Shown here: in pieces, positions 14,798-36,197 of the stretch
How positions within the stretch are numbered: the first letter of the stretch is position 1
Layout of the letters: every line of letters begins with the position of its first letter
Source: an uncultured Akkermansia sp.
Lineage (GTDB): Bacteria; Verrucomicrobiota; Verrucomicrobiia; Verrucomicrobiales; Akkermansiaceae
NCBI GenBank assembly: GCA_947626545.1
Contig: CANQSS010000005.1
Coordinates: 6,706 to 70,705 of the forward strand
Reading direction: 5' to 3'
DNA length: 64,000 bases
Made by a program: the position numbers and the translations under genes
Notes under the pieces: generated by a model
Seen by the model: only the letters and a program-made list of their open reading frames with translations
Databases searched by the model: none
Told to the model about the DNA's origin: nothing

Positions 14798-15146
14798 GGG
14801 CAAACGCATTTGAGAAAAGTTCATCAACGGAGGAAGTGCTCTTATTGGCTGATATCACTGTCCATACGTATCAAGAATCATGACAACAAGCACTCATCAT
14901 GCTGATGGTTTTAAAGAAGCCCCTGCATACGTTGACGGTTCAAAAATTCTGTGCAATGCACACATTATTAATAAATCGTACATCGTAAATCGAAAGTTGA
15001 CTCACCGCCGCCCCATCGGCGGTTCGCCCTTTGGGCAGCGCCTTCGCGCTGTCCATACGCACTTACCGCCCGCTAACGCGTGCGCCCTCATCGGGGCCGT
15101 CGTGCGTGTTGTACATAGGCAACCGCATTTTCTAATGCGTTTGCCC
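14798..15146 (+). mobile_element. Family-1 MITE, full copy carrying a nested family-2 fragment
   Basis: Ends are GGGCAAACGCATT... and ...GGCAACCGCATTTTCTAATGCGTTTGCCC. Relative to 911..1141 it has a 119-bp insertion at 14994..15112, inside its heptamer stretch. That insertion is the reverse complement of parts of 42061..42239. Confidence 0.75.
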
Positions 15147-15762: not shown

Positions 15763-16725
15763 TCAATGCGCTTGCCGTGGGAATGCGGGAAGCTTTTCCA
15801 GCTGCCGCAGTTGGACAATTTGCTTCTTCTTTGCCTTGTAGGCGCGGCGGAGTTTGCCAAAGGTTATTTTGCTCATGAGGCGATAGAAGAGCAACTTACC
15901 GAGAGTGGGCTCGATAACTTCGTCGGAAAGGAGATACGACCCATTGAGTTCAAGGATTTTTGCTTTGTCTCTCTCTTGAATATGGAACAAGTAGAGTGTC
16001 AGGCAAAACTCTCCCAAATACCCCAGGAAACGCTTCGCGGCTGGTTTTAGCTGTGTGCTGTCCACCTGCCTGTCCACTTCGGCAAGAATGCGGAAGCAGA
16101 ACTCGCTGTACTCGAAAAAGAGCTCTCGCCGCATGATAAACATGTTGCACAAGTACTGCACACTGCCCTGCTCCAGTTTATCCGCCGCTGCCGCGTAGTC
16201 CGGGTAGAGCCGTCGCACGGCCTCCAACAGCAGGTCAAACCATTCCCCCTGCTGCCCCCGCAAGCACGTGTACTGCTCCCGTACGCTTGCCTTACCCAGT
16301 TTCTGCACATCATATGGCTTGAGTACCACGCAATCCTGTCCCACCACGCGTTGCATGATAAGCTCATCACGAACATACTGCATATACGCCGGCGTAACGC
16401 AGGGGGCGAAATAAACGTGTCCTCCCGGAAGCCAGACAGCTTCCGGGTTCCCCGCCCAATCATCAAACACGAAATGGCGGCGGTAATGCATGAATCCCAC
16501 GTACTCCGGGTTTCCTGCAGCCTCGTAATTTTTCCACACCCAATACTGTGCCGTCAGCTCACAGTACTTGTCATTCTCCGCAGAAATATTCTCCCCCTCA
16601 TCATCCCGCAGCATCCCTTCATACAGTTCCTCCGCCCCTGCACACCCCGTCTGTATAGGCGTCAGAATCTCACTTCTCACCAGTTTGTGGCGGTCGTGGT
16701 AGCTTAGATAAATTTTGATGTTCAT
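15763..16725 (-). CDS. DUF4422-domain glycosyltransferase
   Basis: 320 aa. IYLSYHDRHKLVRSEILTPIQTGCA...NISAENDKYCELTAQYWVWKNY...YVGFMHYRRHFVF. Same domain as the N-terminus of 34095..36197. Confidence 0.85.
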   Translation of the reverse strand: MNIKIYLSYHDRHKLVRSEILTPIQTGCAGAEELYEGMLRDDEGENISAENDKYCELTAQYWVWKNYEAAGNPEYVGFMHYRRHFVFDDWAGNPEAVWLPGGHVYFAPCVTPAYMQYVRDELIMQRVVGQDCVVLKPYDVQKLGKASVREQYTCLRGQQGEWFDLLLEAVRRLYPDYAAAADKLEQGSVQYLCNMFIMRRELFFEYSEFCFRILAEVDRQVDSTQLKPAAKRFLGYLGEFCLTLYLFHIQERDKAKILELNGSYLLSDEVIEPTLGKLLFYRLMSKITFGKLRRAYKAKKKQIVQLRQLEKLPAFPRQAH

Positions 16726-16898
16726 CGGATTTGTTGGTGCTCAGCTCACAACTCTCTCTGCTTGTTGATCGAATTCTGAAGGGGCTTCATCATTTCGAAT
16801 ACAAAACGATCCCGGAGGAACGAACCGCCTTCCTCCGTTCACGCTATGGCACCCCTCCAAAAAAGTCAAGCAAATTGTGGAATAGCTTTCGATTATGT

Positions 16899-17143
16899 GG
16901 ATTGCAAGATTCAACGCAACAGTGCGATAACATAAAGGAGAGAGCCCGGTTAGCTTGGGAAACACGAGTCCCTCTTTCCGTTGGGAGACGGATTCTGTCT
17001 GAGTTATGGTTGGTCGGGCAGAGCTGTTCCCAGCTCGGTCAGAGCCCTTCCAAATAGGTCAGCCCCTGTTTCCCTGCTCGAGGATCTTCTTGTCTATTTC
17101 TCTGCGCAGGATGGTGCGGATGTTGGTGTAGAGGATGTGCTCG
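16899..17143 (+). repeat. 245-bp direct repeat, copy A (flanks the Abi pseudogene)
   Basis: Near-identical to 18396..18640. Weaker similarity extends leftwards to about 16779 (versus about 18213). The minus strand carries a 3' ORF fragment ...GRLYYEHILYTNIRTILRREIDKKILEQGNRG*, followed by GC-rich hairpins (GAGCTG-GGAA-CAGCTC). Confidence 0.8.
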
Positions 17144-17222: not shown

Positions 17223-18233
17223 TCACCGCCATATTTTATCACTGGACCATTGCGCATTTGTGAATCCTAAATGTTTGTACAATTCAGGGATGGTGGGTTC
17301 AGTACTTGATAGAAAATCCTTACACCTATCCCGCCATTTGCTCTTTGGGGCTATCTTCCCCAAGATGATCGCACAAATACATAAAGCTGCGGCTGTCTTA
17401 TCGAGTTCTGCCGTACGAGAGATCAGTCCTCTGTCCTGCCGCAGTATGGGAGTCTTCTTCTTACTGAGCCATGTTTTATCCCATATTCTTGACTGATGTG
17501 CGCAAGAATTTCGCACATCCTTCAAAAAGGCTATCGCTGACAGAAAGAAAGAGGCATATGGGATTCCCATCTCCCCTGCAATCTTTTTTACTATCTTGTC
17601 GGGGAGGCAGATTCTAAGCAGAGTGTGTATATTTCCCAAGGTGGCAAACTCGACGTAAGCCCGGGGCAAACGCATTGAAAATGCGTTTGCCATGTACGAT
17701 GTACGATTTTCGATGTACGATTTATTAATAATGTGCGCGTTGCGCAGATTTTTCGGATCATTAATGTATGCTGAGATCCCTTTAAAACCATCATCATGAT
17801 GACCGCTGGTTGTCATGATTTTTGATGTATATAAACAGTTATATCAGTCAACAAGAGCATTTCCTCTGTTTATTGATTTCTCTCAAATGCAGTTGCCCCG
17901 ATTATAGGCCACCTGAGTACGTAATGCTATTTCAATTCGGGAAATAGCATCGAACAGCAAATTCCTAAGTCTTCTATCGAACATATACCTTGCCATCACA
18001 TCCTCCCAACGCACGCCAGCTTGGAAAAAGAGTTCTTTCCCTTTTTCTCCTTTTCTAGTTTCTATAAACGGGTGCCAGTAGGCAGACAAACGATAGTAGT
18101 TTATGTATCGAAGCCTCTGTTTTATTTCTTCTCGCAGCTCTCTTTCATCCAGTTCACGACTCTGCATTTCTCTACCGAGGATGATATCCACTTGGTCGTC
18201 GAAATTTTTGAAGGGCTTCGTCATATCGAACAT
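17223..18233 (-). pseudogene. Abi_2 (AbiD/AbiF-like) abortive-infection gene, split by a MITE insertion
   Basis: N-terminal ORF 17883..18293 (MTKPFKNFDDQVDIILGR...YINYYRLSAYWHPF...) and C-terminal ORF 17223..17816 (...VRNSCAHQSRIWDKTW...) together form an Abi_2-like protein. The first ORF terminates inside the inserted repeat (...AYNRGNCI*). Confidence 0.8.
17663..17899 (-). mobile_element. Family-1 MITE, full copy inserted in the Abi_2 gene
   Basis: 237 bp. The ends GGGGCAAACGCATT (17663..17676) and AATGCAGTTGCCCC (17886..17899) are inverted repeats. The interior aligns to the reverse complement of 911..1141. Confidence 0.8.
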
Positions 18234-18395
18234 AGAGAGACCCCGGAGGGACGAACCGCAGCCGGGGTCAAGTTTGCGGGTTGTACACTGCACTTGCAGC
18301 GTCCACGGGTCAACCGCAGAACCGCCTTTCTGGGTTCAGACTACACTACACCTCAGTGAAAGTCAAGAAATTTTACAAAAATATTTTGATTTTGA

Positions 18396-18640
18396 GGATT
18401 GCAAGATTCAACGCAACAGTGCGATAACATAAAGGAGAGAGCCCGGTTAGCTTGGAAAACACGAGTTCCTCTTTCCGTTGGGGAATGGATTCTGTCTGAG
18501 TTATGGTTGGTCGGGCAGAGCTGTTCCCAGCTCGGTCAGGGCCCTTCCAAATAGGTCAGCCTCTGTTTCCCTGTTCGAGGATCTTCTTGCCTATTTCTCC
18601 GCGCAGGACGGTGCAGATGCTGGTGTAGAGGATGTGCTCG
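18396..18640 (+). repeat. 245-bp direct repeat, copy B
   Basis: See copy A (16899..17143). It ends exactly where the composition switches to AT-rich DNA. Confidence 0.8.
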
Positions 18641-18674: not shown

Positions 18675-19922
18675 TTATTTCTGATTAGTAAACAAATCTT
18701 TTAACTTAGAGGGAAGCTCTTCATATTCGTTGAACCAAATAACTTTTAATCCCAGTCTGGACATAATTATACATGTCGATTCCTTTTCTCCCTCCGTATT
18801 TCCGTGTTCGTCTTCTTTTAGAAAAATACAATGTTCCCTACTTCCATCACCATTTGCAAGCTCCAAGAGTCTTCGTAAATTCGGGTCTTGCATAGAAAAG
18901 CCCACAAAAATACAATTAGTACTTCTCATGTAATGAAGTTGTTCTACATTAACCCACCTGTATGACTCGTTAAATAATCTATTGTAGCTGCTTTCTTCTA
19001 AAATCAAATGGGGAACACTTGTTGGCTTTTTAGACTTTGGTATGTATCCATGAACATGAAGAATAGGTACACCATCTCGCTGCATTACTTCATCACCTTC
19101 AAGAACGGGAAAGACTGGCGTACCATAAGATTCTAATTTTCTCTCTATTAAATCATCATAGTTATACGTTACAATTGTGTCTATTTGTTTATTCTGAATT
19201 AAACTTATGATTGTATTAAGAAGATGTGATTCTTTTTCTTCATTTAAATATAATGCTTCTTTGATTAATTCATAAACATGAAACTCAGGCTCGTACTTAT
19301 ATTTGTACTCGTGTTTGTACTCGTACTTTTGAAGAATAGTTATTATCTTTCGAGATTTGATAATTAAATTATTATCCCTAATTTTAGAAACGATTTCTTT
19401 TATTTTAGGATCCTGTATGCAATTTTCCATGTTTTTTAACAGCTCATCCCATGCAGGTAATCCTGATGATATGCCCACACCTGCCCCAACAAACAGAGTT
19501 TTACTCCCTCTTAATTTCGGGTATTCATCTTCGACAACTTGTTTTCTCTCTATGGGTTTTGTTTTTTTGAGAATGCTTTTTGCTGGTAGGAAAAAAATTG
19601 ATTTAGATTCTAGTTTTTTTACATATTCCTCTGGAATGCTGATATTAAGGTAAATAATATATACATAGTGATTTTCTTGTAATTTGCTTTCTATATAATG
19701 TAAAACTCTAGTTATCGCTGTTCCTAGATTATATTTAAATTCTATAATGGCGGGACCCTTGATGTTTAATTTTGCACATCCATTAGGTAATACCATATCC
19801 CAAACAGCGTGATCCTGCGAATCATTTACACCTTTTAGTTCTCGAGGGCTACATGCAGACGTGATAGCCATAACCATCTCTTTTTCGAATTCGTACCCAC
19901 TCTTTATATAATCTTGTTTCAT
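18675..19922 (-). CDS. PD-(D/E)xK-like N-terminal domain fused to a SIR2_2 (defence-type sirtuin) domain
   Basis: 415 aa, ATG start, AT-rich. SIR2_2 motifs appear in order: TLFVGAGVGISSGLPAWDELL, DTIVTYNYDDLIE, VPILHVHGYIP and CIFVGFSMQDPNLRRLL. The N-terminal ~130 aa has GYEFE ... WDMVL-x18-EFK spacing like Mrr-type nuclease cores. Confidence 0.85.
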   Translation of the reverse strand: MKQDYIKSGYEFEKEMVMAITSACSPRELKGVNDSQDHAVWDMVLPNGCAKLNIKGPAIIEFKYNLGTAITRVLHYIESKLQENHYVYIIYLNISIPEEYVKKLESKSIFFLPAKSILKKTKPIERKQVVEDEYPKLRGSKTLFVGAGVGISSGLPAWDELLKNMENCIQDPKIKEIVSKIRDNNLIIKSRKIITILQKYEYKHEYKYKYEPEFHVYELIKEALYLNEEKESHLLNTIISLIQNKQIDTIVTYNYDDLIERKLESYGTPVFPVLEGDEVMQRDGVPILHVHGYIPKSKKPTSVPHLILEESSYNRLFNESYRWVNVEQLHYMRSTNCIFVGFSMQDPNLRRLLELANGDGSREHCIFLKEDEHGNTEGEKESTCIIMSRLGLKVIWFNEYEELPSKLKDLFTNQK

Positions 19923-20317
19923 GGTTAGAGAATATTGCTTAAATTACTATTTCTCAATAAAAAATGATAAAACTGAACAAGATGATTTGGAAATCAGAGC
20001 TTAAGATCAATCCAATTTATTGTGGAAGGAGAGAATTTTGTTAAAGAGGAGGAAACCATTCGAGAAGAACTCTGAGACGGGTAGATTCTGGTTAATTCAC
20101 GCGGTAGCTTCCGACTCTCCTGGCTAGTATGGAGTGACTAAGACAATGGGTGTGAAGTCCTCTCCCTCTACACTCTTGCATGAGACAGAAGACGTCGAGG
20201 GGTTCTTATTGAGCTTATGAGCGCGGCTATTATCGATGCCTGATAACCCTATTCGTTCATTAATATTGCACGATTTATCCATATTTGTACTTTTCAACGA
20301 TGTGATGGAACAAAGCC

Positions 20318-21340
20318 TCAATTTTCTTTGGAAGCTCGTGTCCTTTCCCCATGTCTCTTAAGCCACGCTTCCAGCAATTTTTTATTCTTCGGATACCAGT
20401 CATTGCATATCCTATACTTTTTCCCAAGTATCGTCACGGGCTCTACATAATACCGGGCATGTAATTTGCCGGACAATCCCTCGGCATTTATTGGCAAAAG
20501 AGCAGCGTATGATAAATTAAACTCTTTTTTCGAATATTCCTCGTCACACAAATCCCGCAAAAGCTTTTTATCTTTACACCTTAAACACGATTCCCTAAAT
20601 CTGCCTCGTGCCAGTTCTCCCACTTTATACTGTTCTTCTACCTCTTTTTGTTCGCCCTGGAGTGTATGACCAAATACACTACTACAATTTGACATCAACT
20701 GACAAAAACGCAAAAACAACTCTTGAGTGTTAGTGTATTTAACCTTTGAAGCCATATCTTCAATACCTTTTACGATTGAACGAACAAAATCGCTGTTAAA
20801 GAGCAGATCTATCTTAATGCTCTTTCCCTTCTCCCGATACAGGAACTCCTGTAAGTCCCCAATAAGGCCTTTTATCTTTTCTACGTCGGTACCTCGAACA
20901 AATGGTGAAGCAAAGAATATATGAAGTTCGTCATAATCAATATAAGCTGTTAGGGATAATATGCTCCGCATAATTTTAGACACAATCTTCCATGCAGAGG
21001 ATAGTTTTTTGTTCCCTCCATAATTCAACCCGTGTGAGTGGAATGCAACATCTCCCGCCTTAATGTACAGTTTCTTTTTCTTTTCGACTTTGATGCCAAC
21101 CACGTCAATTTCACACTGCTTCAATATCGTTCCCAACTTATCCCTTTCCCCAAATACCTTTACTCCTCCTTTTTTCTGGCAAAATTGTTGGAACTCCTCA
21201 TATAGCCTCACAGCACGGGATTCCCTTTCTGACCCAATTTCTTTCCAATTAGGCGCTTTCCAATTGGTTTGTACAACCGGATATTTCTCCATATGTCGAA
21301 GCCATGAAGCAATGAGCGATTCAGCTACGTCTATTTGCAT
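20318..21340 (-). CDS. Uncharacterised 340-aa protein, upstream partner of the SIR2 fusion
   Basis: Clean ATG ORF in the same AT-rich block and on the same strand. I recognise no family signature. Weak nuclease-like pattern (AESLIASWL..., CEIDVVGIKVEKKK, GDVAFHSHG). C-terminal basic region ...RYYVEPVTILGKKYRICNDWYPKNKKLLEAWLKRHG. Confidence 0.75.
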   Translation of the reverse strand: MQIDVAESLIASWLRHMEKYPVVQTNWKAPNWKEIGSERESRAVRLYEEFQQFCQKKGGVKVFGERDKLGTILKQCEIDVVGIKVEKKKKLYIKAGDVAFHSHGLNYGGNKKLSSAWKIVSKIMRSILSLTAYIDYDELHIFFASPFVRGTDVEKIKGLIGDLQEFLYREKGKSIKIDLLFNSDFVRSIVKGIEDMASKVKYTNTQELFLRFCQLMSNCSSVFGHTLQGEQKEVEEQYKVGELARGRFRESCLRCKDKKLLRDLCDEEYSKKEFNLSYAALLPINAEGLSGKLHARYYVEPVTILGKKYRICNDWYPKNKKLLEAWLKRHGERTRASKEN

Positions 21341-21442
21341 GATTTTAGTTTATTGGTAGTTTGATTATTAAAATGACGTCTTCTCACAGTAGTGAAGTTT
21401 TTTCTATGAAAGTGGGGCTTGGGTCATCAATTTTCCCCCGTC

Positions 21443-24320: not shown

Positions 24321-26590
24321 AATGCTTTCTGAGGTTGTCGAGGAAATTCTTTCGCGAGTTGCTTCTTGTACTCCTCAAGCAGCTTTGCATCGGTGACAAA
24401 GAGGATGACATCTTTCCACACGATGAGTCCATTCTCGTGTGGCCACGCGCGTGCTTTGTCCAGAATGCCGGCTTCCCACAGTCGCTTGAGTTGAGCCCTG
24501 TATTTGGGATCATTAGGGTGGTTAGGACGAGGGTGCTCACCTCTAAATTCTGTCTGATAATAAAATTCGTAGGCATGAAACAAATCCCAGGGAGCATCAT
24601 AGCTAAATGACAATAGGCTGTTTCCGTGGTCATGGAATCTTTTTGAAGGCCGCAATTTCTTATAAAAGCGAGAGCGCATGGAAATAGGCATACCAATCTG
24701 AATAATATTGTATTTTCGACTCACGTCAAAATCTTTTTGGATTTCCATACGCATCAGTACCCTGTTCCAGAGCATCTTTTCTGCATCAAAGCCCAGTTTC
24801 CAGACACGGAGACAGTCCAGATCATTGATGATAGACACCCATACAACTCCTGTTGCCGCAAGAACGCTTAAATTGTGCATCTTTTTGAGTTTTGTAAAGA
24901 CTATAACTGTCACAAGTGTTTCAAAAACAATTAATCCAAATAATTCTATCCGTCCAGCTATGAGGTACTTATTAGCAATTATCATGGCAGTCTGCGTCGC
25001 GAAAAGCGCTCCACCAAGTAAAAGCACTCTCACGATCTTTTGCTTGATGTTTCCAATCGAACAAATGTACAACACCACGAGAACGACAAACCCTAAAAAG
25101 ACCCACAAAAGGCCCTGGGAGATAAAGGGAAAAGGATATTCGCACAATTGACGGAAACTTTGTTCGAATAAAACAACTAAACGTTCCGAGATCTGGCCAA
25201 GGGGCAAAGTTTGCGTGTTGTAGTCACCATTTGGCGGAAACACAAACGTAAGTACGAGTTTGTAAGAAAGAATCCCAAGGACAATGTTGATCGCCGAAAC
25301 AGCGTACGGGACAAAGCAGGTTCGAAACTGTCTCCATGAGCAATCCCTCTCAAATGACTGGACTAACAACCTGCCGACAAAAGCCACGGCGATGGTGTTA
25401 ATCAGGACGGGATACGTTGCCAGAGACAGGTTAATCAGAACAATGGAAAGGAGTGAACAAACCACTTTCCTCGTGCGAGAACTTTTCTCGAATGCTATCT
25501 TCTCGGTCAGCGTAAGTGCAGTCAGAGCAAGGGTGACACCAATGAAAGTTTCGGGGAGCATATGCTCGTAATACATCATGCATAATGTAAACGGCTGCGC
25601 CGTCAGAATGAGGCCGCACAGGACAAAGTAAATAACTCGTTTTTCGAGTTTCCAGTAAGTACAGAGCAATACCGCATTCAGTGCGAGAAAAAGGAAGGAG
25701 ACAACATCGTAGATAAGAGGCAAATAGATGCCGCCAAGAACGGTACTCTTAATACCATACAATGCGTACCTCCCGCACCATACAAAAGCCGTTGCACTCT
25801 TAAAAGCGAACGCATCTTTCCAATCATGATTACCCCACATAAATTGAATAGCGTGGAATCCAAAAGCGAAACACAGCACGCCAAAGATGATCCAAAAAGC
25901 TCGTCGATAGACCCCGTCAATACTTCTGTAATTATCTGCGATTACTTGAACGATATCCTTCTTGTTGAGCCCACTGACTAGCCGTCTGAGAGTATCGAAA
26001 CAGGAGATAAGTAACGAACAAGCAATGAATAATCCAAATAGCCTCTCCCATCTGATGTCCGTGAAGAAAATCGGCTTACGGACTGCAAAACTCAATGTGA
26101 CAGTCGAGTTGTCAGAAATGTTCTTTGCGCAGTACCGGAACGGCTTGTCATGCCAAACTGTTTGCTTCCCAGCAACGGTTTTCCCATTAACTCGTATATT
26201 CTCAAAACAGACGTAGGCAGGTTTCCTCTGGTTGTCAACCATCAAATCTTTCCCACGAAATTTCATTATCAGAGACATATCTTTGGCATTCCCTCGAGGC
26301 GTCAGCGCCATTTGGTAGGATTTTTGCGGGTAGGAAACAGGAAATTGAAGCATGACTCCTTGGTTACCTTTGCTGTCGCGTATCCACCGCGGTCTATCCA
26401 CTCGCAATGTCTTTCCTTGGAAATCAATCTTCCCGTTACAAACTTCTCCGGCAAAGGCAACGTCTACTCGACCAACATCGCTTTGGTATGTCCAGTAGGC
26501 ATCATCTTTTAGGAAAGCACTCGGAAACAGGGAGACCAGCACTATACTCAACCCAAGCCCTCCCAACAACGCTTTTATAATCTTTTTCAT
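24317..26590 (-). CDS. Large polytopic membrane protein, putative GT-C/GtrII-like lipid-linked-sugar transferase (function inferred from context)
   Basis: 757 aa. Signal/anchor, then a ~170-aa extracytoplasmic domain, then more than 10 TM helices, then a ~170-aa C-terminal soluble domain. It is the first gene of the UbiA/PgpA/DMT/acyltransferase operon. Confidence 0.5.
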   Translation of the reverse strand: MKKIIKALLGGLGLSIVLVSLFPSAFLKDDAYWTYQSDVGRVDVAFAGEVCNGKIDFQGKTLRVDRPRWIRDSKGNQGVMLQFPVSYPQKSYQMALTPRGNAKDMSLIMKFRGKDLMVDNQRKPAYVCFENIRVNGKTVAGKQTVWHDKPFRYCAKNISDNSTVTLSFAVRKPIFFTDIRWERLFGLFIACSLLISCFDTLRRLVSGLNKKDIVQVIADNYRSIDGVYRRAFWIIFGVLCFAFGFHAIQFMWGNHDWKDAFAFKSATAFVWCGRYALYGIKSTVLGGIYLPLIYDVVSFLFLALNAVLLCTYWKLEKRVIYFVLCGLILTAQPFTLCMMYYEHMLPETFIGVTLALTALTLTEKIAFEKSSRTRKVVCSLLSIVLINLSLATYPVLINTIAVAFVGRLLVQSFERDCSWRQFRTCFVPYAVSAINIVLGILSYKLVLTFVFPPNGDYNTQTLPLGQISERLVVLFEQSFRQLCEYPFPFISQGLLWVFLGFVVLVVLYICSIGNIKQKIVRVLLLGGALFATQTAMIIANKYLIAGRIELFGLIVFETLVTVIVFTKLKKMHNLSVLAATGVVWVSIINDLDCLRVWKLGFDAEKMLWNRVLMRMEIQKDFDVSRKYNIIQIGMPISMRSRFYKKLRPSKRFHDHGNSLLSFSYDAPWDLFHAYEFYYQTEFRGEHPRPNHPNDPKYRAQLKRLWEAGILDKARAWPHENGLIVWKDVILFVTDAKLLEEYKKQLAKEFPRQPQKAL

Positions 26591-26619
26591 TTTTTAAACA
26601 AAGAGAGAAGAGTCCTGTC

Positions 26620-27738
26620 TCATGAGATTGGGGTGATCATCTTAATCAATTTATATATAATCATTTTTAATGATTTTTTTGATTGTCCTCGTTCGCTAAT
26701 CTTACCATCAAGCAACAACTTTGCATCTTGAACATAGGGAGCTGCTTTCTCCAACCATGCTTTACTCTCCGCTTCCAACTTATGGGCTTTACCTTTATAA
26801 TAAAGTCCTAAGTGATACTGGGCTATAACAAATCCTTGACCAGCGGCCATTAGCAAATAGTGCTCATGATCCCCGTAATACTCTTCATAGGTGCCCAAAA
26901 AGAATTGAGCAATTAGATCTCCATTTTCAGCAGCTTGTTCTATCAGGGAATAATACTTTTGGTCGTTCTCTGCAAACAAAGTCACGTAAACCATACATGC
27001 CAGTGAAAATCCCTCATCAGCCATAGCTTTCAAGATATCTTTCCCTTTTCCGTTATTCCCCGAGCACACACAATCAAATATGAGCATCAACTGATTTTGC
27101 AAATGGGAAAATAACGCATAAGGTTCTCCTTCCCTATGCGTTGTTTCATTCAAATTTATCTCGGGAATATTGGTATTCAATATATAGCCAAAATTGCGCT
27201 CCAGCACATCATACATAGAACCATCATCATCAACAAAGAATGATTTCGTGTCGGCGATGTTAAACTCTCCTTTTAAAACCTTATCTATCATCCTTTCAGC
27301 GTCTTTGCAAATTTCAAGGAGTTTCTTATCATCTTCCGAGAGGGAGCCCAAACTTTCCAATTTTTGGATAACACTCCTAAAATTTTCTTGCGCACTTCCG
27401 GGATTAAGACACAAACAATTAATTATTCCCAGCACGAATTTCGTTTCTATACAAGCGTGAATATCTATCATCTCCGCGCTACGAAGCGCCTGTCTATAAC
27501 AATTTCTCGCATGTATTAGATTCTTATAAGAAAAAACTTCACCACAAATTGCTTTCTTAATATAGAATTCTGCTTCTTTTGTTAAATTGTCATATTCAGT
27601 ACTTAGTTGCGCATCTTTCACATGAGAATCTGAAGCATCGTTCAATTCTTCCACCGCTGTGAGTTGCATAGTCAGACAGGCTCCCATAGTGAAGAGCATG
27701 CGCACGACCTGATTTTTGAATATATTCATAGAAGTCAC
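26620..27738 (-). CDS. Secreted Sel1-like/TPR repeat protein
   Basis: 372 aa with an N-terminal signal-like segment. C-terminal Sel1-type repeats (GDLIAQFFLGTYEEYYG..., GFVIAQYHLGLYYKGKA...AWLEKAA). Confidence 0.65.
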   Translation of the reverse strand: MTSMNIFKNQVVRMLFTMGACLTMQLTAVEELNDASDSHVKDAQLSTEYDNLTKEAEFYIKKAICGEVFSYKNLIHARNCYRQALRSAEMIDIHACIETKFVLGIINCLCLNPGSAQENFRSVIQKLESLGSLSEDDKKLLEICKDAERMIDKVLKGEFNIADTKSFFVDDDGSMYDVLERNFGYILNTNIPEINLNETTHREGEPYALFSHLQNQLMLIFDCVCSGNNGKGKDILKAMADEGFSLACMVYVTLFAENDQKYYSLIEQAAENGDLIAQFFLGTYEEYYGDHEHYLLMAAGQGFVIAQYHLGLYYKGKAHKLEAESKAWLEKAAPYVQDAKLLLDGKISERGQSKKSLKMIIYKLIKMITPIS

Positions 27739-28412
27739 GGTTTTAGAGTATATATAATTATTTTTGCTTTTTTATTATTATTCCTGGCTGAACTAAGCAA
27801 CCAGAGAAGGGCCAATAGGTTGTCCTGCACCACTCCTTTCCCCCGCAAATACAGACATCCCAAGATGTATTGTGCACGGTCATTCTCCGCGTACGCTGCG
27901 GCTCTGTACACAGAGATTACCTTTTTAGAAGGTCTCGTACTCAGTTGCCCCCTTCCCAATGCCTCCTCTTGTCCGTTGATGCCCCATTTGTTTGTTCCTG
28001 GTTCGCCCTCCATTTCAAGTCCCAACCATAGTCGTATAAGAAAAAATACAGGAGTTACAACCCACCACCCACTTCTCCCGATGTCATGTAACCGACTTAT
28101 GGATACATCTATAAGTAAATACAAGAAGTAAAAACACAGTATAGAGTAAATACCAAATGAGATGTCGCCAATCTTTCCTTCGCTAACAAGGAATTGAGCA
28201 CAGAGAAGGCTTCCTAATGACTCATATACGAGTGTTATGATGATCAGGTTTAAATAAAGAAAAATCCGCTTCTTTTTATACAATTCTAAGGCAATCCTTT
28301 TCTTTTTCTGGGGTACATAAAAATCCCATATCATCCTTTTCATTGCTTTTCCAATTTCGCTTCTGTTGGTTCTTGATCTCATCGACGTACCTTTGCTATG
28401 CTGTTGGATCAC
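27735..28412 (-). CDS. DUF805 membrane protein with a C-terminal Sel1 repeat
   Basis: 225 aa. DUF805 core ISRLHDIGRSGWWVV...GEPGTNKWG. C-terminal AENDRAQYILGCLYLRGKGVVQDNLLALLWLLSSA. Has a 4-nt overlap with the downstream gene. Confidence 0.7.
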   Translation of the reverse strand: MIQQHSKGTSMRSRTNRSEIGKAMKRMIWDFYVPQKKKRIALELYKKKRIFLYLNLIIITLVYESLGSLLCAQFLVSEGKIGDISFGIYSILCFYFLYLLIDVSISRLHDIGRSGWWVVTPVFFLIRLWLGLEMEGEPGTNKWGINGQEEALGRGQLSTRPSKKVISVYRAAAYAENDRAQYILGCLYLRGKGVVQDNLLALLWLLSSARNNNKKAKIIIYTLKP

Positions 28413-28415
28413 CGT

Positions 28416-29015
28416 TTATTTTGAGGCATTACTCTGTTCCCTCTCGAGATATTTTCCTATGTGATATATTGCTAATTTGGCTACTACGACCTCCTGTACT
28501 GAAATTTTAGGATCGTGTGATTCGAGAAAACTCTCAAAAAACTTCTTTGCTTTTTCCAAATCTTCCTTGTATCCGTCATTGAAGAACATCAGTGTACCCG
28601 CCTGCTCTGGTCTGAAATGTTCAAAAAATACTGCCGAGAACACTTTGTAAGCAGCCTCCCGATATAGGACAGGGTGAGAGGAAAGAGACGGAAGTTGAGC
28701 TATAAGGTTGCTATAGTTATGATTTTTTACCTCATGTTCTTCTTCCCAAAGCTTGTTCAGAATTTCATGAAAATATTTCTCCGTTGTATCTGCGTTCCCT
28801 CTCGTGAAACACTTCCTGACCTCCTCTCCATCTTTTTCATTCATCTCCCGATCTAATTTTATATTGATCGCTTTTTGTAAGAATGAACAAAAAAGAATGA
28901 ACGGCACCAAGTTCATGAAAGTCTCCCCTGTTTTATGGATAGTTATCCACAGGTATTTCTGCATGTTCCTTCTTGTTTTCATCATCGTTATCGGAGAGAA
29001 ATGAGGATTGTTCAA
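28416..29015 (-). CDS. Hypothetical protein
   Basis: 199-aa ORF, AT-rich, co-directional and tightly packed. The true start may be the internal MNLVPFILF... (about 28916). No recognised motif. Confidence 0.5.
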   Translation of the reverse strand: MNNPHFSPITMMKTRRNMQKYLWITIHKTGETFMNLVPFILFCSFLQKAINIKLDREMNEKDGEEVRKCFTRGNADTTEKYFHEILNKLWEEEHEVKNHNYSNLIAQLPSLSSHPVLYREAAYKVFSAVFFEHFRPEQAGTLMFFNDGYKEDLEKAKKFFESFLESHDPKISVQEVVVAKLAIYHIGKYLEREQSNASK

Positions 29016-29888: not shown

Positions 29889-32868
29889 GGCTGATTGCTT
29901 TGTAGATTTTATCTGTCAACGCGTCGATGTTTTTCTGAATCGCTTCCGATGTCGGGTTGAGTTTTAGGATCGTTTCCTTCAATTCTTCTCGCGAGTATGG
30001 ATGTGGCTGCTGTTCATACTCAACCCATACTTCTTGTTCATCCCTCACGGGCATCTCATAGCGCCATGGTTTATTGTGCCACACGGCGATAGGTGAGGAT
30101 AGTATCTCCTTTCCGTCAATTTTGATGGATTTATAGTCAAGCCACACCGGGAACCTCTTACCTTCAAAACGTACATCCGGCCCCATAAAATTCAGAGTGA
30201 GATTGCCATCCCCACTGGTGAAAATCTTTATTCTCTTCTTGTCTGTTGTACTTGTCAGAACTCGTCCTTCACCCTTCGCATCGCAAAACCAACTCGGTGC
30301 TGTGATCGTGCAGTTCCGTGCTTCAATCGCGATGGCGTTTTTTTCTGTGCCAACATTCTTGATATCAATGCGCGCCTGTTTCAGCTGATCTAAAATGTGT
30401 TCTTTGAGCAATGATTCGGTACTCTTCAACGGACGATGACCTCTACACCAATCTAACAACATTAATTTCTTCCTAGGTTTATAATATTCGCCGGTATCTA
30501 TATCGTAGGCTAACTCAGGAAGTTTAATTTGCTGTCCCATAAAAAGATTAATGTGTTGACTGCTCCAATGAGATGTCCCACTGGCAGGAGTAAATGTCAT
30601 TTCTCCAAATTTGACTTCCCCATTATTAAGGAGGTAAAAATCCACTCGAACATAGTTAAATCCATCGGATAGCTTTTCTGCCAGCTGAATCATCAATTCA
30701 AGATTAGCAGGTTTGGGAATGGTTTTAGTGTCTAAGGGATAAGAAGACGTAAAATCCTGCTTCTCCCATTGTCGGTTATAAAACGCCACCTTCAAACCAG
30801 ACAGATTTCGCTCGGATAAAAATTCGATATAGATGACTTTGCCATTAAAACAAAAAAACTTGTAATCATACAGATCATTTGTTCCTTCATTTTCAAGGTA
30901 GGCCTCAACAAGAATCTTAGGTTTGATATCCCGATAATGAAGCTCAAAACCATTCTTAAATGCAAAGTTCTCACACATCCACCTATCCACCTTCTGCTTG
31001 GCATCGTTGAGATCAAGTTGAGATTTGTCTCTGACTACAATATTATAGCCACAACCATGGTTGCATTTAATCACGAATTGATTGGGTAACTTTTCAAAAT
31101 TAATGTCTTCGAACTGATCATAAACGCCTAACAGTGGAATAAGATATTTCTCGCCGATTTTCTCTTTCACCCATTCACGCACAAGATATTTGTCAGCCAG
31201 CCTCGTCTTGATAGGCGTTGAATCATAGAGCTTGAGCCACTGAATCTTCTCGTTAAATGTTTTTGGAGCTCTCAAATTCAAGCGCCTACCCGTCTGTTTT
31301 TGAAACCATTCAGAAAGAGCAACGGCGTAGTTGACTATTTTAGTTTCCAAGTTAATAAATTGCACTCCTCTGAAATTGCATCTACTTCCGAAAAACCATT
31401 CCTTGAGTGCTTTTTCGGAAGCTGCTCCCAGTGAAACTTGCAAAACGGATGCGATTTTATCCGATGAGATGAACCGTCTGATTAAATTCTCGTCTGTAGC
31501 ATTTTGAACGACAAAGTGTACTTTGGAGGCCTCCTCCTGAACAATTTCTTGTAGCCGTTGCTTGTTAGAATCCCATGAAACCGACAAGTCAAAAACGCAG
31601 CACACCCGCTGGGAGTCTCGTATCGAAATCCTGTTCCTGACGTAGCTCAAATAGAATAACACAGAATCCGATAATGAAGGCTCTACGGAGATGGGGATCC
31701 CCATGATAGAACGCTTTTTGTATCCCCCTGTAAATTTGATTTGTGCATACGGAATGCCCAGGATCTGCTTTACTTCCATATCTGAAGAATAGCGATGCTT
31801 CCACAAAGTAAGTCCCAGGAAGCGGAATTGTATCGCGTTAGAGCTTACCCGCATACCTGATAGGCGTTTTGCTTGCAGAATCCGGCAGACGACCTTGTAG
31901 TCATGATTGCTGATGAGGTGTGCGATAAAATAGTACGAAGGAGAATACCTTTTCAGGAATTCCTGCACAGCCGGGGTGTTGTCAAAGTGATTCTTAATAT
32001 ATTGCTTGATGGAATCGAAGAAAAAGCGCTTCTTTTCATCACCCGTTACCCCATACGTCTTCAGGTGCCATATATAGGAAAACAGGATCACAGCTTTAAA
32101 GCCTGCCTCGCAGGCGGGAAACGCCGGGTATTGCCGGCATCTCTCGAAAGAATATTCATACGCCTGAATAACACAGGACAAATCCTCCCCTTTCGTCAAC
32201 CTCGTGTTCCCTTTGCGGTTGTGACGATAGTAATAGTAAGCCTTGTTATGCACCATCATTCGGTCAGCAGCTATGGCAACCTCATAGGCAAAGCTTGCAT
32301 CGTTTGTGTTTTGAATCGTCTGGAAGCGGATCTTGTTCTTGATCAGAAATTCTCTTCGATATATTTTGTTGAAAGGATAAACAATCAGGCTCCATATAAA
32401 ATTTCCTAAATCTCTTGCATTGAAAATTTTACCCTTACAGAAATCAGTAACAAACAGTTTCGAAAAAGGACCCTCATAATTCATTCGTTGTCCAAAATCG
32501 TTGTAAAAGCCGCAGAAAAGGACATCTAATCTGAACTTTTGAGTGAGAGCGTAGAGTTCTTCGAGCATGGTCACATCACAGTAATCATCCGGGTCAAAAA
32601 ACATAACCCATTCGCCTAGGGCGTGGCCAAGCCCTGTATTACGGGCGGAGCCGGCAAATGAATGTTTGTTCCGGAAGAGCCGGATACGGGCATCTTTTGC
32701 CATGAACTCGCGAATAATGTCCACTGACGCATCTGTAGAGCCATCATCCACACAAATAACCTCAATCTCCCGCAAGGTCTGGTTCAGCAGACATGACAGC
32801 GAATGCTTCAGGTAGGCTGCCACATTGTAAACGGGCAGAATGACTGATACTTTTACTTCATCTGGCAT
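29878..32868 (-). CDS. Three-module protein: GT2 glycosyltransferase + TupA-like ATP-grasp amidoligase + C-terminal beta-rich domain
   Basis: 996 aa. N-terminus is VSVILPVYNVAAYLKHSLSCLLNQTLREIEVICVDDGSTD (GT2). The middle is FNEKIQWLKLYDSTPIKTRLADKYLVREWV...FVIKCNHGCGYNIVV...YDYKFFCFNGKV (TupA-like ATP-grasp). The C-terminus contains AVWHNKPWRY. Confidence 0.88.
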   Translation of the reverse strand: MPDEVKVSVILPVYNVAAYLKHSLSCLLNQTLREIEVICVDDGSTDASVDIIREFMAKDARIRLFRNKHSFAGSARNTGLGHALGEWVMFFDPDDYCDVTMLEELYALTQKFRLDVLFCGFYNDFGQRMNYEGPFSKLFVTDFCKGKIFNARDLGNFIWSLIVYPFNKIYRREFLIKNKIRFQTIQNTNDASFAYEVAIAADRMMVHNKAYYYYRHNRKGNTRLTKGEDLSCVIQAYEYSFERCRQYPAFPACEAGFKAVILFSYIWHLKTYGVTGDEKKRFFFDSIKQYIKNHFDNTPAVQEFLKRYSPSYYFIAHLISNHDYKVVCRILQAKRLSGMRVSSNAIQFRFLGLTLWKHRYSSDMEVKQILGIPYAQIKFTGGYKKRSIMGIPISVEPSLSDSVLFYLSYVRNRISIRDSQRVCCVFDLSVSWDSNKQRLQEIVQEEASKVHFVVQNATDENLIRRFISSDKIASVLQVSLGAASEKALKEWFFGSRCNFRGVQFINLETKIVNYAVALSEWFQKQTGRRLNLRAPKTFNEKIQWLKLYDSTPIKTRLADKYLVREWVKEKIGEKYLIPLLGVYDQFEDINFEKLPNQFVIKCNHGCGYNIVVRDKSQLDLNDAKQKVDRWMCENFAFKNGFELHYRDIKPKILVEAYLENEGTNDLYDYKFFCFNGKVIYIEFLSERNLSGLKVAFYNRQWEKQDFTSSYPLDTKTIPKPANLELMIQLAEKLSDGFNYVRVDFYLLNNGEVKFGEMTFTPASGTSHWSSQHINLFMGQQIKLPELAYDIDTGEYYKPRKKLMLLDWCRGHRPLKSTESLLKEHILDQLKQARIDIKNVGTEKNAIAIEARNCTITAPSWFCDAKGEGRVLTSTTDKKRIKIFTSGDGNLTLNFMGPDVRFEGKRFPVWLDYKSIKIDGKEILSSPIAVWHNKPWRYEMPVRDEQEVWVEYEQQPHPYSREELKETILKLNPTSEAIQKNIDALTDKIYKAISHAK

Positions 32869-32912: not shown

Positions 32913-33992
32913 TTAATTCTCAAGTGTCTTCCACACGGTCACCCCGAAGAAGTTAATCTTCCGGGTGGTTTCCAAAAAATTAATTGATACGACCGGGATC
33001 CCCAGAAAGTAGTATCGAGTCCTTTCGGGGGAAATTTTGTGTATGGTCAGCACTCGTACTGCTCCAAATAGCATATAAGTTTTCTTAGATGTCTTGAATG
33101 GTTCAGGAGGAGGGGGCGGGACCTTCTTGACAGGAGGAATAACTATTTTTTCCTTAATGGATAAATTAAAAAGATCGTTGAAATTAAATTGATAAAATCC
33201 CCAATGATCTTTGTAAACTACGGTCATGTCTTTTCCACGAAAGAACGCCAGAAGATCACAAATTCCACTACGCAAAGCATGAATGGAGTGACAATTCAAT
33301 CCGAGCCAAAGAGCCTCTTCTAAGCTCATGTTCAAATGTATGGCTCCTTTAAGAGGAAACGGATGAAGAGCGTTGATGATAACTTTCAATCCCTGCCTTG
33401 CATACTCTGCGATTTCCTTTTCCCAGTATGCATCAATTTCTCTCGTCATCTGAAATTTATCCCCACATTCAGGAATTAAAAGAACCATCTGAGAAAGCTG
33501 ACCCAGTTGCGATACCCTATTCATGAACTCAGTCGACACCGTAATATTATCTGACTTTGGGCGTTCAAAATAATCCCAACACGAAGAAGGGATCTGCAAA
33601 AGATATTCAAAATAATTGCGCATCCTGAACGTTTGTCTATTGATCGCCCTACGAGGATCCAATTCCCTATGATTTCCAAAAAAGGCGACCCAAACTGCCC
33701 CCTTACGTAAACGAGGCGTCTGATCAGAAATTGCTGTCAACCTATCGCATGCAATCCCAGAAAAACCCTCAGCCGCAAAATCCAATACATCATAGTCATC
33801 CACTCCGTACATCTTCATGATAACTTCGTGACTCCGACGGATCAGGAAATGAAAGGGTCCTCCCCATCTCTGCTCCATATATCGGCGTAAACCTAGATAA
33901 ACCAAGGTGTCACCGCATCCGGCAGATAGCAGAATGTAATACTTCTCCGGGTCAAGACGAATATTCGAGAGACGTACGATTGGTTTACTCAT
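32913..33992 (-). CDS. Hypothetical protein, paralogue of 38876..39820 (possible glycosyltransferase-like fold)
   Basis: The ORF 32913..34019 start codon reads TTG. I prefer ATG at 33992 (MSKPIVRLSN...). It shares ALRSG(I/L)CD(L/V)L and surrounding similarity with 38876..39820. Confidence 0.65.
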   Translation of the reverse strand: MSKPIVRLSNIRLDPEKYYILLSAGCGDTLVYLGLRRYMEQRWGGPFHFLIRRSHEVIMKMYGVDDYDVLDFAAEGFSGIACDRLTAISDQTPRLRKGAVWVAFFGNHRELDPRRAINRQTFRMRNYFEYLLQIPSSCWDYFERPKSDNITVSTEFMNRVSQLGQLSQMVLLIPECGDKFQMTREIDAYWEKEIAEYARQGLKVIINALHPFPLKGAIHLNMSLEEALWLGLNCHSIHALRSGICDLLAFFRGKDMTVVYKDHWGFYQFNFNDLFNLSIKEKIVIPPVKKVPPPPPEPFKTSKKTYMLFGAVRVLTIHKISPERTRYYFLGIPVVSINFLETTRKINFFGVTVWKTLEN

Positions 33993-34094
33993 AACAGGTA
34001 AAATATGTGGGCTGACCAAATTGTTTCCCGCTGAAATTTTCCTCCTCTTTTTGACTTCTGCGGGATTTCAAATACGTATTAATACTTAAATTCA

Positions 34095-36197
34095 TCAACT
34101 AAAACTTACTCGGTTAATTGTTTCCTTAGCATCCCTGATCAAAATCTTTAGCTCCCTCTTACGCTCGATAAGTTTTCTCCTCTTTTTACCAACACTAAAT
34201 AGAATTCGCATACGAATTCTTCTCAACTTTCTTTCCAGTTGAGGCAACACTTCCATGGCACGTAAAATTTCCTTCATTTTTTCTTCGCTACAGCTTATTA
34301 ATTTCTGAAATTTTACCCCACTGTCGCTAATTAATTTCTGAAAATCCGGAATCTTCTTTTCACTCTCGGACTTTTGGAACAGTTCCTTCTGTATGTTCGC
34401 GATGTGTTCATAAAGGATCGTTTCATAAAATGGAGTTTTACGTGCATAGTGCCAAAAATAAGTGCTCAGAGGATCATCATATGCACTGTTCCACGGTTTT
34501 TTGTGTCCACAGTAATGAACAATCCAAGGATCTCCTCTGCTAGTCAAGTATTCAAACAAGTCTGAGGCGGCCATCTTTTGCATCCAATCGTTTACATGCA
34601 AGGTTATTGAAGACTCAACGTTCCACCTGACGTCCAAAAACGATGTTCTTCCCTTGAAAACTATATTCATAACATCTTGATCATTGAGTCTTAAGCTGCC
34701 AACTCTTTTCTCGAGTGTTTCAAGCAGTTGTGAAAGTATGTCCTCTCTGACCATTTGTCGGACGTTCATTAGCAGAACTCCCGCATTAAAATACTGCTTA
34801 ACATTGTCCAATCCAATCACCTCCCTAACGTATTTCCTCCAGAAATCTGAAACATTAGATAACAAGCACAATCCTCTATCTCTGATTACCGCTGCTAGTG
34901 AATTATTATCCAATTCGGTTTCATACAACTTTGCTACATCTCTTTTTACAACTAAGTCGCAATCTAAATAAAGGAGCTTATCGTAATTTTTAAAAATTAG
35001 CGGAATGAAAAACCTGTTGTAAGTGTTGATGGAGTGGTACGATTTAGTTTGAAAGATGTCAGGTAATGATGCAAAATAGGGTTTAACGTTGACGAATCGG
35101 ATCAATATATTCTTTTTTTGTAATTGTTTAATCAAGTTTTGATCTTCCAAAGACATTTCCTGATACAAGATGCAAATATCATAATTATTTGAATCCGAAG
35201 CATTTTCTATCAGAGACTGTATGGTCGTGACCAGATATGGCAAATAACGCTGATTTGAACTCAAACAAACAGCGATATTTTTCTCACTGAAGCCAGGTTC
35301 AACAGTCGGACATTCAAGTACAGGTGTCTCTTCTACAAGTGTCCTCTTCAATTCCAACACATTCAGATTTTTTGTAGTTTTGTTGTGGAACAGCCATATT
35401 CCGAACAATCGCTCGGCAATATATCCTATTACCCTCGTTTCTTGAACATTGTATCGTGATATATCAAGCTTTTTTTCTACTTCAAACAAGATTGTAAAGA
35501 GCCATTGAGCAAACTCGTGAAACAACTCGCGCCGCATTACAAAGCAGTTTGTGAAATATCCATACTTTTGGGAGTTATATTTTTTTGCGCTCTCTACATT
35601 TTGAGGGGAGATTTCCTCCATCACTTGCAAGGCAATCTCGTAGTCATGAATGTGGTGAAATTTCTTGTACTGCTCATATACAGTCTGAACTTTCGCATAT
35701 CCCACATCTAATTTTTCGGCCACAGCAATGTCGTAATCTTTTACGACGTTGGTAATCTGCTCACGCGTCAGGTGGAAGGTCCGGACATACCCGTCGTCCA
35801 TCTTTCGCCAAGTAATGACACCTCCTCCGTTCGGTTTGAGAGAATTATTCAAATCAAAGCACAGATGCCTTCGGTAGTGCATAAGACCAATATAATCAGG
35901 GTCTCCTAATTTATCATAATTCTTCCATGCCCAATACAAAGCTGTTAATTCACAATATCTACGATTCAGGTGAGAAATATTCTCGCCCGTATCATCACCA
36001 AGGGATATATTGTCAATCATCCACTGATAATCATCAGCAGATATGTAGCCATCTCTTGTGGCCTCTCTTGCGATCGCCCTCCCTGTATGGATGGGAACTA
36101 AGATATCGCTCTTGAGGAGGGTAGCCGGTTTGTTATATGCAACCAATATTTTTACTGTGGGTTGGGTTTTCATTTTATAGTTCGATTGATTTTTCAC
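34095..36197 (-). CDS. Bifunctional DUF4422 + GT8 glycosyltransferase
   Basis: 700 aa. N-terminus is ILVAYNKPATLLKSDILVPIHTGRA...CELTALYWAWKNY...GLMHYRRHL (DUF4422). C-terminus is IAVCLSSNQRYLPYLVTTIQS...YLDCDLVVKRDVAKLY...YFNAGVLLMNV (GT8). The start may be the internal MKTQPTV (9th codon). Confidence 0.88.
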   Translation of the reverse strand: MKNQSNYKMKTQPTVKILVAYNKPATLLKSDILVPIHTGRAIAREATRDGYISADDYQWMIDNISLGDDTGENISHLNRRYCELTALYWAWKNYDKLGDPDYIGLMHYRRHLCFDLNNSLKPNGGGVITWRKMDDGYVRTFHLTREQITNVVKDYDIAVAEKLDVGYAKVQTVYEQYKKFHHIHDYEIALQVMEEISPQNVESAKKYNSQKYGYFTNCFVMRRELFHEFAQWLFTILFEVEKKLDISRYNVQETRVIGYIAERLFGIWLFHNKTTKNLNVLELKRTLVEETPVLECPTVEPGFSEKNIAVCLSSNQRYLPYLVTTIQSLIENASDSNNYDICILYQEMSLEDQNLIKQLQKKNILIRFVNVKPYFASLPDIFQTKSYHSINTYNRFFIPLIFKNYDKLLYLDCDLVVKRDVAKLYETELDNNSLAAVIRDRGLCLLSNVSDFWRKYVREVIGLDNVKQYFNAGVLLMNVRQMVREDILSQLLETLEKRVGSLRLNDQDVMNIVFKGRTSFLDVRWNVESSITLHVNDWMQKMAASDLFEYLTSRGDPWIVHYCGHKKPWNSAYDDPLSTYFWHYARKTPFYETILYEHIANIQKELFQKSESEKKIPDFQKLISDSGVKFQKLISCSEEKMKEILRAMEVLPQLERKLRRIRMRILFSVGKKRRKLIERKRELKILIRDAKETINRVSFS

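Follow-up and report, generated by a model that had tools for sequence, protein, structure and literature searches.

We have analysed two neighbouring genes of an uncultured Akkermansia sp. that lie in a 64,000-nucleotide (nt) stretch of contig CANQSS010000005.1 (assembly GCA_947626545.1, positions 6,706 to 70,705 of the forward strand), hereafter the window. One encodes a 415-amino acid (aa) protein in which a small N-terminal domain is fused to a C-terminal SIR2 domain (the SIR2 fusion), and the other a 340-aa protein that belongs to a large unannotated family. The initial annotation of this DNA had proposed that the pair forms a two-component abortive-infection module of a new type. Our results point instead to two independent single-gene modules that are neighbours in a strain-variable hotspot and do not constitute one system, a reading to which we give a probability of about 0.7, and a new two-component abortive-infection system is not supported. 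The SIR2 fusion would most likely be a self-contained sensor-effector combining nucleic-acid sensing with depletion of nicotinamide adenine dinucleotide (NAD+). If this explanation is true, the locus contains two large unannotated candidate defence families and no new two-gene system.

Distribution of the two gene families

Both minus-strand open reading frames (ORFs) have exactly the coordinates, strand and lengths that had been reported for them (Table 1). They are real genes, with identical or homologous proteins known at E-values down to 1e-277 and 1e-227. The peptide motifs originally quoted from the 415-aa protein (TLFVGAGVGISSGLPAWDELL, TYNYDDLIE, ILHVHGY, FVGFSMQDPNLRRLL and GYEFE...WDMVL-x18-EFK) were all recovered as well.

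The evidence that separates the two genes comes from reciprocal surveys of their neighbourhoods. On the SIR2 side, one genome per species was taken, which gave 80 loci in Bacteroidota, an Akkermansia metagenome-assembled genome (46% identity), Proteobacteria, Bacillota, Armatimonadota and others, and the partner was sought within ±6 kb with hmmsearch at E<=10. On the partner side, the 106 loci came from metagenomes, from IMG/VR and from Logan/ENA contigs, and at 80% identity they correspond to 65 lineages. Even at this permissive threshold, no homologue of the 340-aa protein was present within ±6 kb in any of the 80 SIR2-family loci, and a SIR2 gene was found in 0 of the 106 partner-family loci. 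The partner is also missing beside the closest SIR2 relatives beyond the island that carries the pair, at 57%, 46%, 45% and 41% identity.

A conserved neighbour is absent for both families in these loci. No neighbour family was common to more than 3 of the 80 SIR2-family loci, and in the subset with the same architecture the 77 immediate neighbours were distributed over 76 Pfam families, none of them seen more than twice. The 119 immediate neighbours of the partner family fell into 107 Pfam families, with none seen more than three times. The two genes were found together only in island copies that are at least 90% identical, that is, the identical copies L007-L010 and a 92%-identical variant (L194/L195). 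The retention of the pair and its spacer in this variant reflects shared ancestry at that distance, not independent conservation.

The arrangement of the pair is not operon-like either, as a gap of 395 nt, in which promoter-like matches precede the start of the SIR2 gene, lies between the two. Moreover, their G+C content at third codon positions (GC3) differs, being 0.279 in the SIR2 gene and 0.405 in the 340-aa gene. Because synteny between the two families is not seen in other genomes, we reject the two-gene system that had been proposed, and the adjacency of the genes in one AT-rich block is no evidence that they belong to one system. Likewise, we read the SIR2 fusion as a one-protein module because it has no conserved neighbour.

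The SIR2 fusion protein

The C-terminal half of the 415-aa protein is well supported as a SIR2 domain of the ThsA/DSR2/KomC type with conserved catalytic residues. The expected Pfam family, SIR2_2 (PF13289) and not SIR2 (PF02146), matches aa 249-377 with 64.1 bits against a cut-off of 24.5 (E 1.9e-17). When a family profile built from 32 sequences was compared with the PDB, the matches were ThsA (8wc0, 8e-21), KomC, FAM118B and DSR2. The AlphaFold2 (AF2) model of the whole protein has a predicted local distance difference test score (pLDDT) of 82, and Foldseek searches with it gave ThsA (8btp, E 1.3e-12) as the best match, followed by DSR2 and KomC, with E-values from 1e-12 to 1e-9 and a probability of 1.00. 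Residues G146, A147, G148, N254, D256, H289, H291, D346, P347, N348, R350 and R351 are invariant in 32 homologues. Furthermore, His291 aligns with His146 of KomC, which is the residue mutated in PDB entry 9xvc, 'KomC(H146N)'. The catalytic Asn and His are conserved, in agreement with the initial annotation, to which they looked intact.

More than 246 homologues of 400-470 aa have the same architecture. The PADLOC and NCBIfam matches of the protein (ThsA1, LmuA, PDC-S25 and Dsr1) are restricted to the SIR2 core: the ThsA1 profile of PADLOC aligned only over its positions 20-273 of 478, and the NCBIfam model NF041818 (Dsr1) scored 25.6 bits against a cut-off of 1400. Neither PADLOC v2 nor NCBIfam holds a model of the whole fusion. 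In the full-text literature that was searched, neither this architecture nor the biology of PDC-S25 was described, which is no proof of novelty.

The N-terminal domain contains a motif (Table 1) that is shared by sets of 20-32 diverse sequences; in the set of 20, E61 is invariant and E28, D42, L45, P46, G48 and K63 are at least 90% conserved. Its predicted topology in the AF2 model consists of a helix (9-23), two strands (43-45 and 58-66), a second helix (70-80) and a third strand (86-94). D42 is placed just ahead of strand 43-45, and E61-x-K63 lies within the next long strand, which is followed by the helix and strand, so the domain presents an acidic residue and a (D/E)xK element on adjacent strands (D42, E61 and K63). 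The initial annotation had pointed here to the spacing of Mrr-type PD-(D/E)xK cores; the motif stands as a conserved feature compatible with a PD-(D/E)xK site, and the assignment of the domain to that group is weighed below. The N-terminal domain gave nothing when aligned with the 340-aa family by hhalign. It does align, with the motif shared, with a distant clade of ~500-aa proteins (hhalign 91%, E 1e-6). These longer SIR2 homologues (L032, L036, L038, L046, L047 and ~26 other loci) have an extended N-terminal region with a homologous core, and come from Proteobacteria, Flavobacteriia, Bacillota and Armatimonadota. Because they keep the E..D..ExK core, the N-terminal::SIR2 architecture is far wider than the Bacteroidales/Akkermansia clade.

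From sequence and predicted structure, we propose that the PD-(D/E)xK-like domain (E...D42...E61-x-K63) would recognise, and perhaps cut, infection-associated nucleic acid. This cue would make it switch on the ThsA/DSR2/KomC-type SIR2 domain, perhaps by oligomerisation; ThsA and KomC form filaments. The SIR2 domain would then hydrolyse NAD+ to ADP-ribose and nicotinamide, and the loss of NAD+ would stop phage growth through abortive infection or growth arrest. The 340-aa protein would act alone, most likely as the product of a nuclease-type defence gene or mobile-element gene. If this is true, NAD+-depletion immunity would gain a route that starts from nucleic-acid sensing, through a compact PD-(D/E)xK-like::ThsA-type SIR2 architecture of ~420-500 aa that occurs in Bacteroidota, Verrucomicrobiota, Proteobacteria, Bacillota and other phyla. 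This route would operate in gut commensals, in which, to our knowledge, few defence systems have been tested. Both families are large and experimentally tractable.

The 340-aa protein and its family

The 340-aa protein has no match in Pfam, PADLOC or NCBIfam, in agreement with the earlier remark that no family signature was recognised in it, and 60 diverse members of its family gave no Pfam or PADLOC match. A word-indexed search retrieved 7 relatives only. When the search was made exhaustively with a profile, the number rose to 1,641 representative proteins at E<=1e-3, 287 of them at E<=1e-30, nearly all full-length (310-350 aa), and the source annotations of the family members are uniformly 'hypothetical protein'. 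E7, E77, D79, F143, P146 and W315 are invariant in 60 family sequences; the near-invariant positions include H16, N26, W27, Q75, H101, R296 and Y297, and a RYY...W...W module is conserved at the C-terminus.

The AF2 model of this protein has a pLDDT of 65 overall, ~80 for residues 1-200 and a poor C-terminus, and E7, E77 and D79 sit on a predicted alpha-beta-beta-beta core. Foldseek searches with the model listed Nt.BspD6I (probability 0.82-0.87, E 0.06-0.08, TM ~0.23) and also Bse634I and XPF, none of these matches being significant, and neither a BFVD structure search nor a sequence profile against the PDB gave anything. As a working inference of low confidence, the protein may have an N-terminal restriction-endonuclease-like core that includes E7, E77 and D79, and it might act as a nuclease.

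The family occurs in several local settings. In one locus (L001, 3377-7678) a relative with 34% identity is found among three ankyrin-repeat proteins, one of which matches the PADLOC candidate PDC-M72A. In one clade, which comprises 2 lineages at 80% identity, the gene directly after the family member encodes a conserved protein of ~285 aa that ends in a GIY-YIG domain, and serine recombinases often lie nearby (L110, 7024-7878; L150, 7023-7895; and 11 more loci, mostly the IMG/VR contigs L174-L190). The stop and start codons of the two genes overlap or are <=20 nt apart, and in that clade they may represent a genuine two-gene module. A general model of a 340-aa partner with a variable downstream effector was considered, since the gene after it varies between loci and may be SIR2, GIY-YIG, Macro, ankyrin or a small ORF. 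We did not adopt this model, as LysR, DAHP synthase and phage portal genes are also found downstream and the GIY-YIG pairing is limited to 2 of the 65 lineages.

We have also found genes related to ADP-ribose around this family. Of the 106 partner-family loci, 9 contain Macro genes and 9 contain ADP-ribosylglycohydrolase (ARG) genes, amounting to 13 loci in all and 9 of the 65 lineages, and neither kind was present in the 82 SIR2-family loci that served as control. Two loci (L099, 1767-11708, and L163, 1845-11614) contain a tight co-directional array with the order HsdR, WYL, 340-aa family member, x, Macro, x, x, ARG. Further relatives lie in arrays of this kind, with type I HsdR, WYL, Macro and ADP-ribosylglycohydrolase genes, in L125, L156, L166 and L172.

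Evaluation of the alternatives

Several observations weigh against two independent modules, one of them with a nuclease-like sensor. The PD-(D/E)xK assignment of the N-terminal domain is suggested by its motif and predicted topology, and no similarity to a known member was detected: the best hit to PDB profiles was unrelated (E 0.82), no Pfam match appeared at E<=1, and one Mrr_cat sequence that was compared with it by hhalign did not align. The putative nuclease fold of the 340-aa protein comes from a model with a pLDDT of 65 and Foldseek E-values of at least 0.06. Over its whole length, neither protein corresponds to a validated defence family; PADLOC gave no match for the 340-aa protein and matched only the SIR2 core of the other. 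In addition, the pair is retained with its spacer in the 92%-identical variant, so that linkage at the level of this lineage is possible. Finally, the link of the partner family to ADP-ribose genes makes its position beside a putative NAD+-degrading enzyme (NADase) slightly less likely to be pure coincidence.

It is unlikely that the 340-aa gene is non-defence cargo of a mobile element or prophage, such as a recombination/replication nuclease or a counter-defence gene, with the SIR2 gene as the only defence gene of the pair. This would agree with the 22 family loci on IMG/VR viral contigs, with the phage portal proteins and serine recombinases among the neighbours and with the presence of the family as an isolated insertion between housekeeping genes; prophages, however, commonly carry defence genes too. 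Many neighbours are moreover of defence type (HsdR, Mrr-helicase, AAA_13, HEPN and PADLOC candidates), and around the 340-aa gene the window shows no phage module for structure or replication that could be recognised.

A lineage-specific two-component system, in which the nuclease-like 340-aa protein and the SIR2 fusion cooperate, either by sharing sensing and execution or by ADP-ribose feeding the partner, seems quite improbable to us. The co-directional position of the genes in one low-GC block, the variant with pair and spacer retained and the thematic NAD+/ADP-ribose link of the partner family (9 of 65 lineages) would favour it. These points have to be set against the lack of co-occurrence in the 80 and 106 loci, the SIR2 relatives at 41-57% identity that lack the partner, the long spacer with its promoter-like sites, the different codon-position composition of the two genes and the overwhelmingly unrelated and variable neighbours of each family.

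We give very little credence to a further version, in which the 340-aa family would be a nuclease-fold effector tied to NAD+/ADP-ribose chemistry and recruited beside the SIR2 NADase as a coupled system, the SIR2 product or a contact controlling the nuclease, and in which the restriction-endonuclease-like::SIR2 fusion would be an undescribed class of nucleic-acid-sensing NADases widespread in gut Bacteroidota. A functional tie to the neighbouring NADase is kept alive only because of the NAD+/ADP-ribose neighbours of the 340-aa family. Most improbable of all is that the SIR2 fusion is no immune NADase but has a regulatory role as a deacylase or ADP-ribosyltransferase with a host or DNA target: SIR2 folds do catalyse deacylation and ADP-ribosylation too, but the proteins that match best in sequence and structure (ThsA, DSR2 and KomC) are without exception immune NADases and not CobB-/Sir2-type deacetylases, the Pfam match is to SIR2_2, the distribution is patchy, the composition foreign and the neighbours are defence or mobile-element genes.

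Genomic context

By their composition, both genes look foreign and were probably acquired horizontally, as had been noted, with a G+C content of 0.331 in the SIR2 gene and 0.402 in the 340-aa gene, and 0.395 in the spacer. The block is truly AT-rich, although the one-third G+C ascribed to all of it holds for the SIR2 gene only. The flanks had been put at well over half, which is an overstatement: the acyltransferase gene has 0.507 and the DUF4422 gene 0.529 (GC3 ~0.64 for both), and repeat copy B and the Abi_2 remnant have 0.477 and 0.439, that is, about half. On the right, the composition changes at ~21.44 kb, at the acyltransferase stop, as originally placed. On the left it changes at the SIR2 stop (~18.67 kb), ~55 nt past the end of repeat B where the initial annotation had put it. 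There are more low-GC blocks at 26500-29000, 30000-31000 and 33500-35500, where G+C is 0.37-0.41 and the median of the window 0.54; they may be additional acquired segments in this region of surface-polysaccharide genes.

The promoter-like sites of the spacer (minus strand, 19993-19964 and 19957-19929) are, like that upstream of the 340-aa gene, consensus matches only, for an organism whose promoters may be of another type. The spacer has no Rfam match, its predicted RNA folding is no better than that of shuffled sequences (z = +0.87), and no RNA element or tRNA attachment site was found in or near it.

The window neighbours of the pair are Abi_2 fragments, an acyltransferase gene and a DUF4422 gene. 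The Abi_2 gene had been taken as support for a defence module, an argument that is weakened because the gene is a pseudogene. Of the 184 positions of Abi_2 (PF07751), 3-66 match the ORF at 17883-18293 and 128-184 the ORF at 17223-17816, positions 67-127 being missing, and the AbiD profile of PADLOC matches both fragments. Direct repeats of 300 nt stand on either side of the remnant. An inverted repeat of 195 nt (80% complementary) has its arms at 14798-14992 and 17704-17898, the latter at the break in Abi_2. The repeats contain short motifs of the ATGTACGAT type and have the appearance of a dispersed repeat element. The 92%-identical variant L193 keeps part of repeat B before the context diverges, and there RloB is found after SIR2.

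In sister-strain contigs (L199-L201), AAA_21 with RloB and AAA_14/DUF4143 replace Abi_2, SIR2 and the partner beside the same DUF4422 gene (window 15763-16725). Because sister strains carry other genes at this position, the site is a strain-variable defence hotspot within a polysaccharide/glycosyltransferase region. Both families are found in defence-like or mobile-element settings also elsewhere. Neighbours of the SIR2 family include SLFN_AlbA_2 with RES, RloB, CHAT, a CAP12-type TIR domain, IS66 and DUF2924, and those of the partner family include HsdR, Mrr_cat-helicase, UvrD, PDDEXK_4, AAA_13, HEPN_Swt1, DUF488, serine recombinases and phage portal proteins, with many PADLOC matches among them (including PDC-S14, UzuA, PbeA and mREase_IV). 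The neighbours of the SIR2 family and the replacements in the sister strains thus bear out the defence-like setting that had been claimed for the cassette.

Table 1. Features of the locus, in window coordinates
Feature	Position	Strand	Basis and remarks
415-aa protein gene: N-terminal PD-(D/E)xK-like domain and C-terminal SIR2 (NADase-type)	18675..19922	-	ORF, Pfam, AF2, Foldseek, homologues
SIR2 domain, aa ~138-415	18678..19511	-	GAGVS Rossmann loop, Asn254 (TYNYD), His291 (HVHG), DPNLRRL motif
N-terminal domain, aa 1-~125, putative nuclease-like sensor	19548..19922	-	Conserved E...E28...D42-x2-LPxGC...E61-x-K63 motif
Spacer between the two genes	19923..20317	-	395 nt; matches to sigma-70-like promoters shortly before the SIR2 start
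340-aa protein gene, large unannotated family, putative restriction-endonuclease fold	20318..21340	-	ORF, profile search, AF2, Foldseek
AT-rich region upstream of the 340-aa gene	21341..21442	-	102 nt, G+C 0.363; right edge of the low-GC block; promoter-like match 21371-21342
Direct repeat copy B	18319..18618		87% identity to the second copy (16822-17121); at the left border of the low-GC block
Abi_2/AbiD pseudogene (context only)	17223..18293	-	Two ORFs between the direct-repeat copies; not part of the SIR2 or partner modules

Comparison with known systems

The fold matches of the 340-aa protein to the catalytic domains of the type II/IIS restriction endonucleases Nt.BspD6I and Bse634I are not significant, although it has the invariant acidic residues E7, E77 and D79 on its predicted core. 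Unlike these enzymes, it lacks a canonical (D/E)xK motif; no methyltransferase neighbour was seen in the window. The gene content of the arrays found in 9 of the 65 lineages of its family matches that of the ARG-centric conflict systems, for which WYL regulators, Macro domains and a 'rapidly evolving REase' (restriction endonuclease) are described in section 3.8 of Iyer, Burroughs, Anantharaman and Aravind (2022; PMC9503650), and the 340-aa family may be the REase of that section. The window, in contrast, has no WYL, Macro or ARG gene, and most family members sit outside such arrays. If the explanation that we favour is true, the members within WYL-Macro-ARG arrays would provide a concrete handle on the anti-ADP-ribosylation conflict systems predicted there (PMC9503650).

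With regard to the SIR2 fusion, the initial annotation had pointed out that a TIR, HerA or pAgo partner and the long architecture of the DSR proteins are lacking, and scans with Pfam, PADLOC and NCBIfam agree with this. KomC (of the Kongming system) and the SIR2 subunits of SIR2-HerA have a ThsA-like SIR2 NADase core in common with it, with His146 of KomC corresponding to His291. These are SIR2-only proteins (264 aa in KomC) that belong to multi-gene systems with KomA/B or HerA, and no such partners were found at the locus or in the 80 related loci. SIR2-HerA, SIR2-pAgo and Lamassu-SIR2 were rejected as candidates, since no HerA, pAgo/APAZ or LmuB (SMC) gene is present at the locus and the 80 loci have no conserved neighbour.

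ThsA of Thoeris is the best match of the SIR2 domain both by sequence profile and by structure. The two agree in the arrangement of the catalytic Asn and His, and the likely output is the depletion of NAD+. In ThsA the SIR2 domain is N-terminal and followed by a SLOG/STALD signal-binding domain, and the protein works with the TIR protein ThsB. The 415-aa protein differs in its C-terminal SIR2 domain, the absence of SLOG, the unrelated N-terminal domain and the absence of a TIR neighbour, a TIR domain being present in only 1 of the 77 SIR2-family neighbours. Thoeris was discarded accordingly, as the protein ends with the SIR2 domain, with no SLOG/STALD or Macro domain, and no TIR gene is adjacent.

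DSR1 and DSR2 follow the same logic as the one we propose, in that a single protein joins a SIR2 NADase effector of similar fold to a sensor region; DSR2 has been described as being activated by a phage tail tube protein. The DSR proteins are larger (~1,000-1,300 aa), and in them the SIR2 domain comes first and a large sensor forms the C-terminus, while here a small N-terminal nuclease-like domain precedes a C-terminal SIR2 domain within 415 aa, and this order, together with the size and the low NF041818 score, led us to reject a DSR1/DSR2 assignment. The SIR2 fusion is probably a SIR2 effector of the NADase type with an undescribed small sensor domain, and as such it should be no surprise to specialists.

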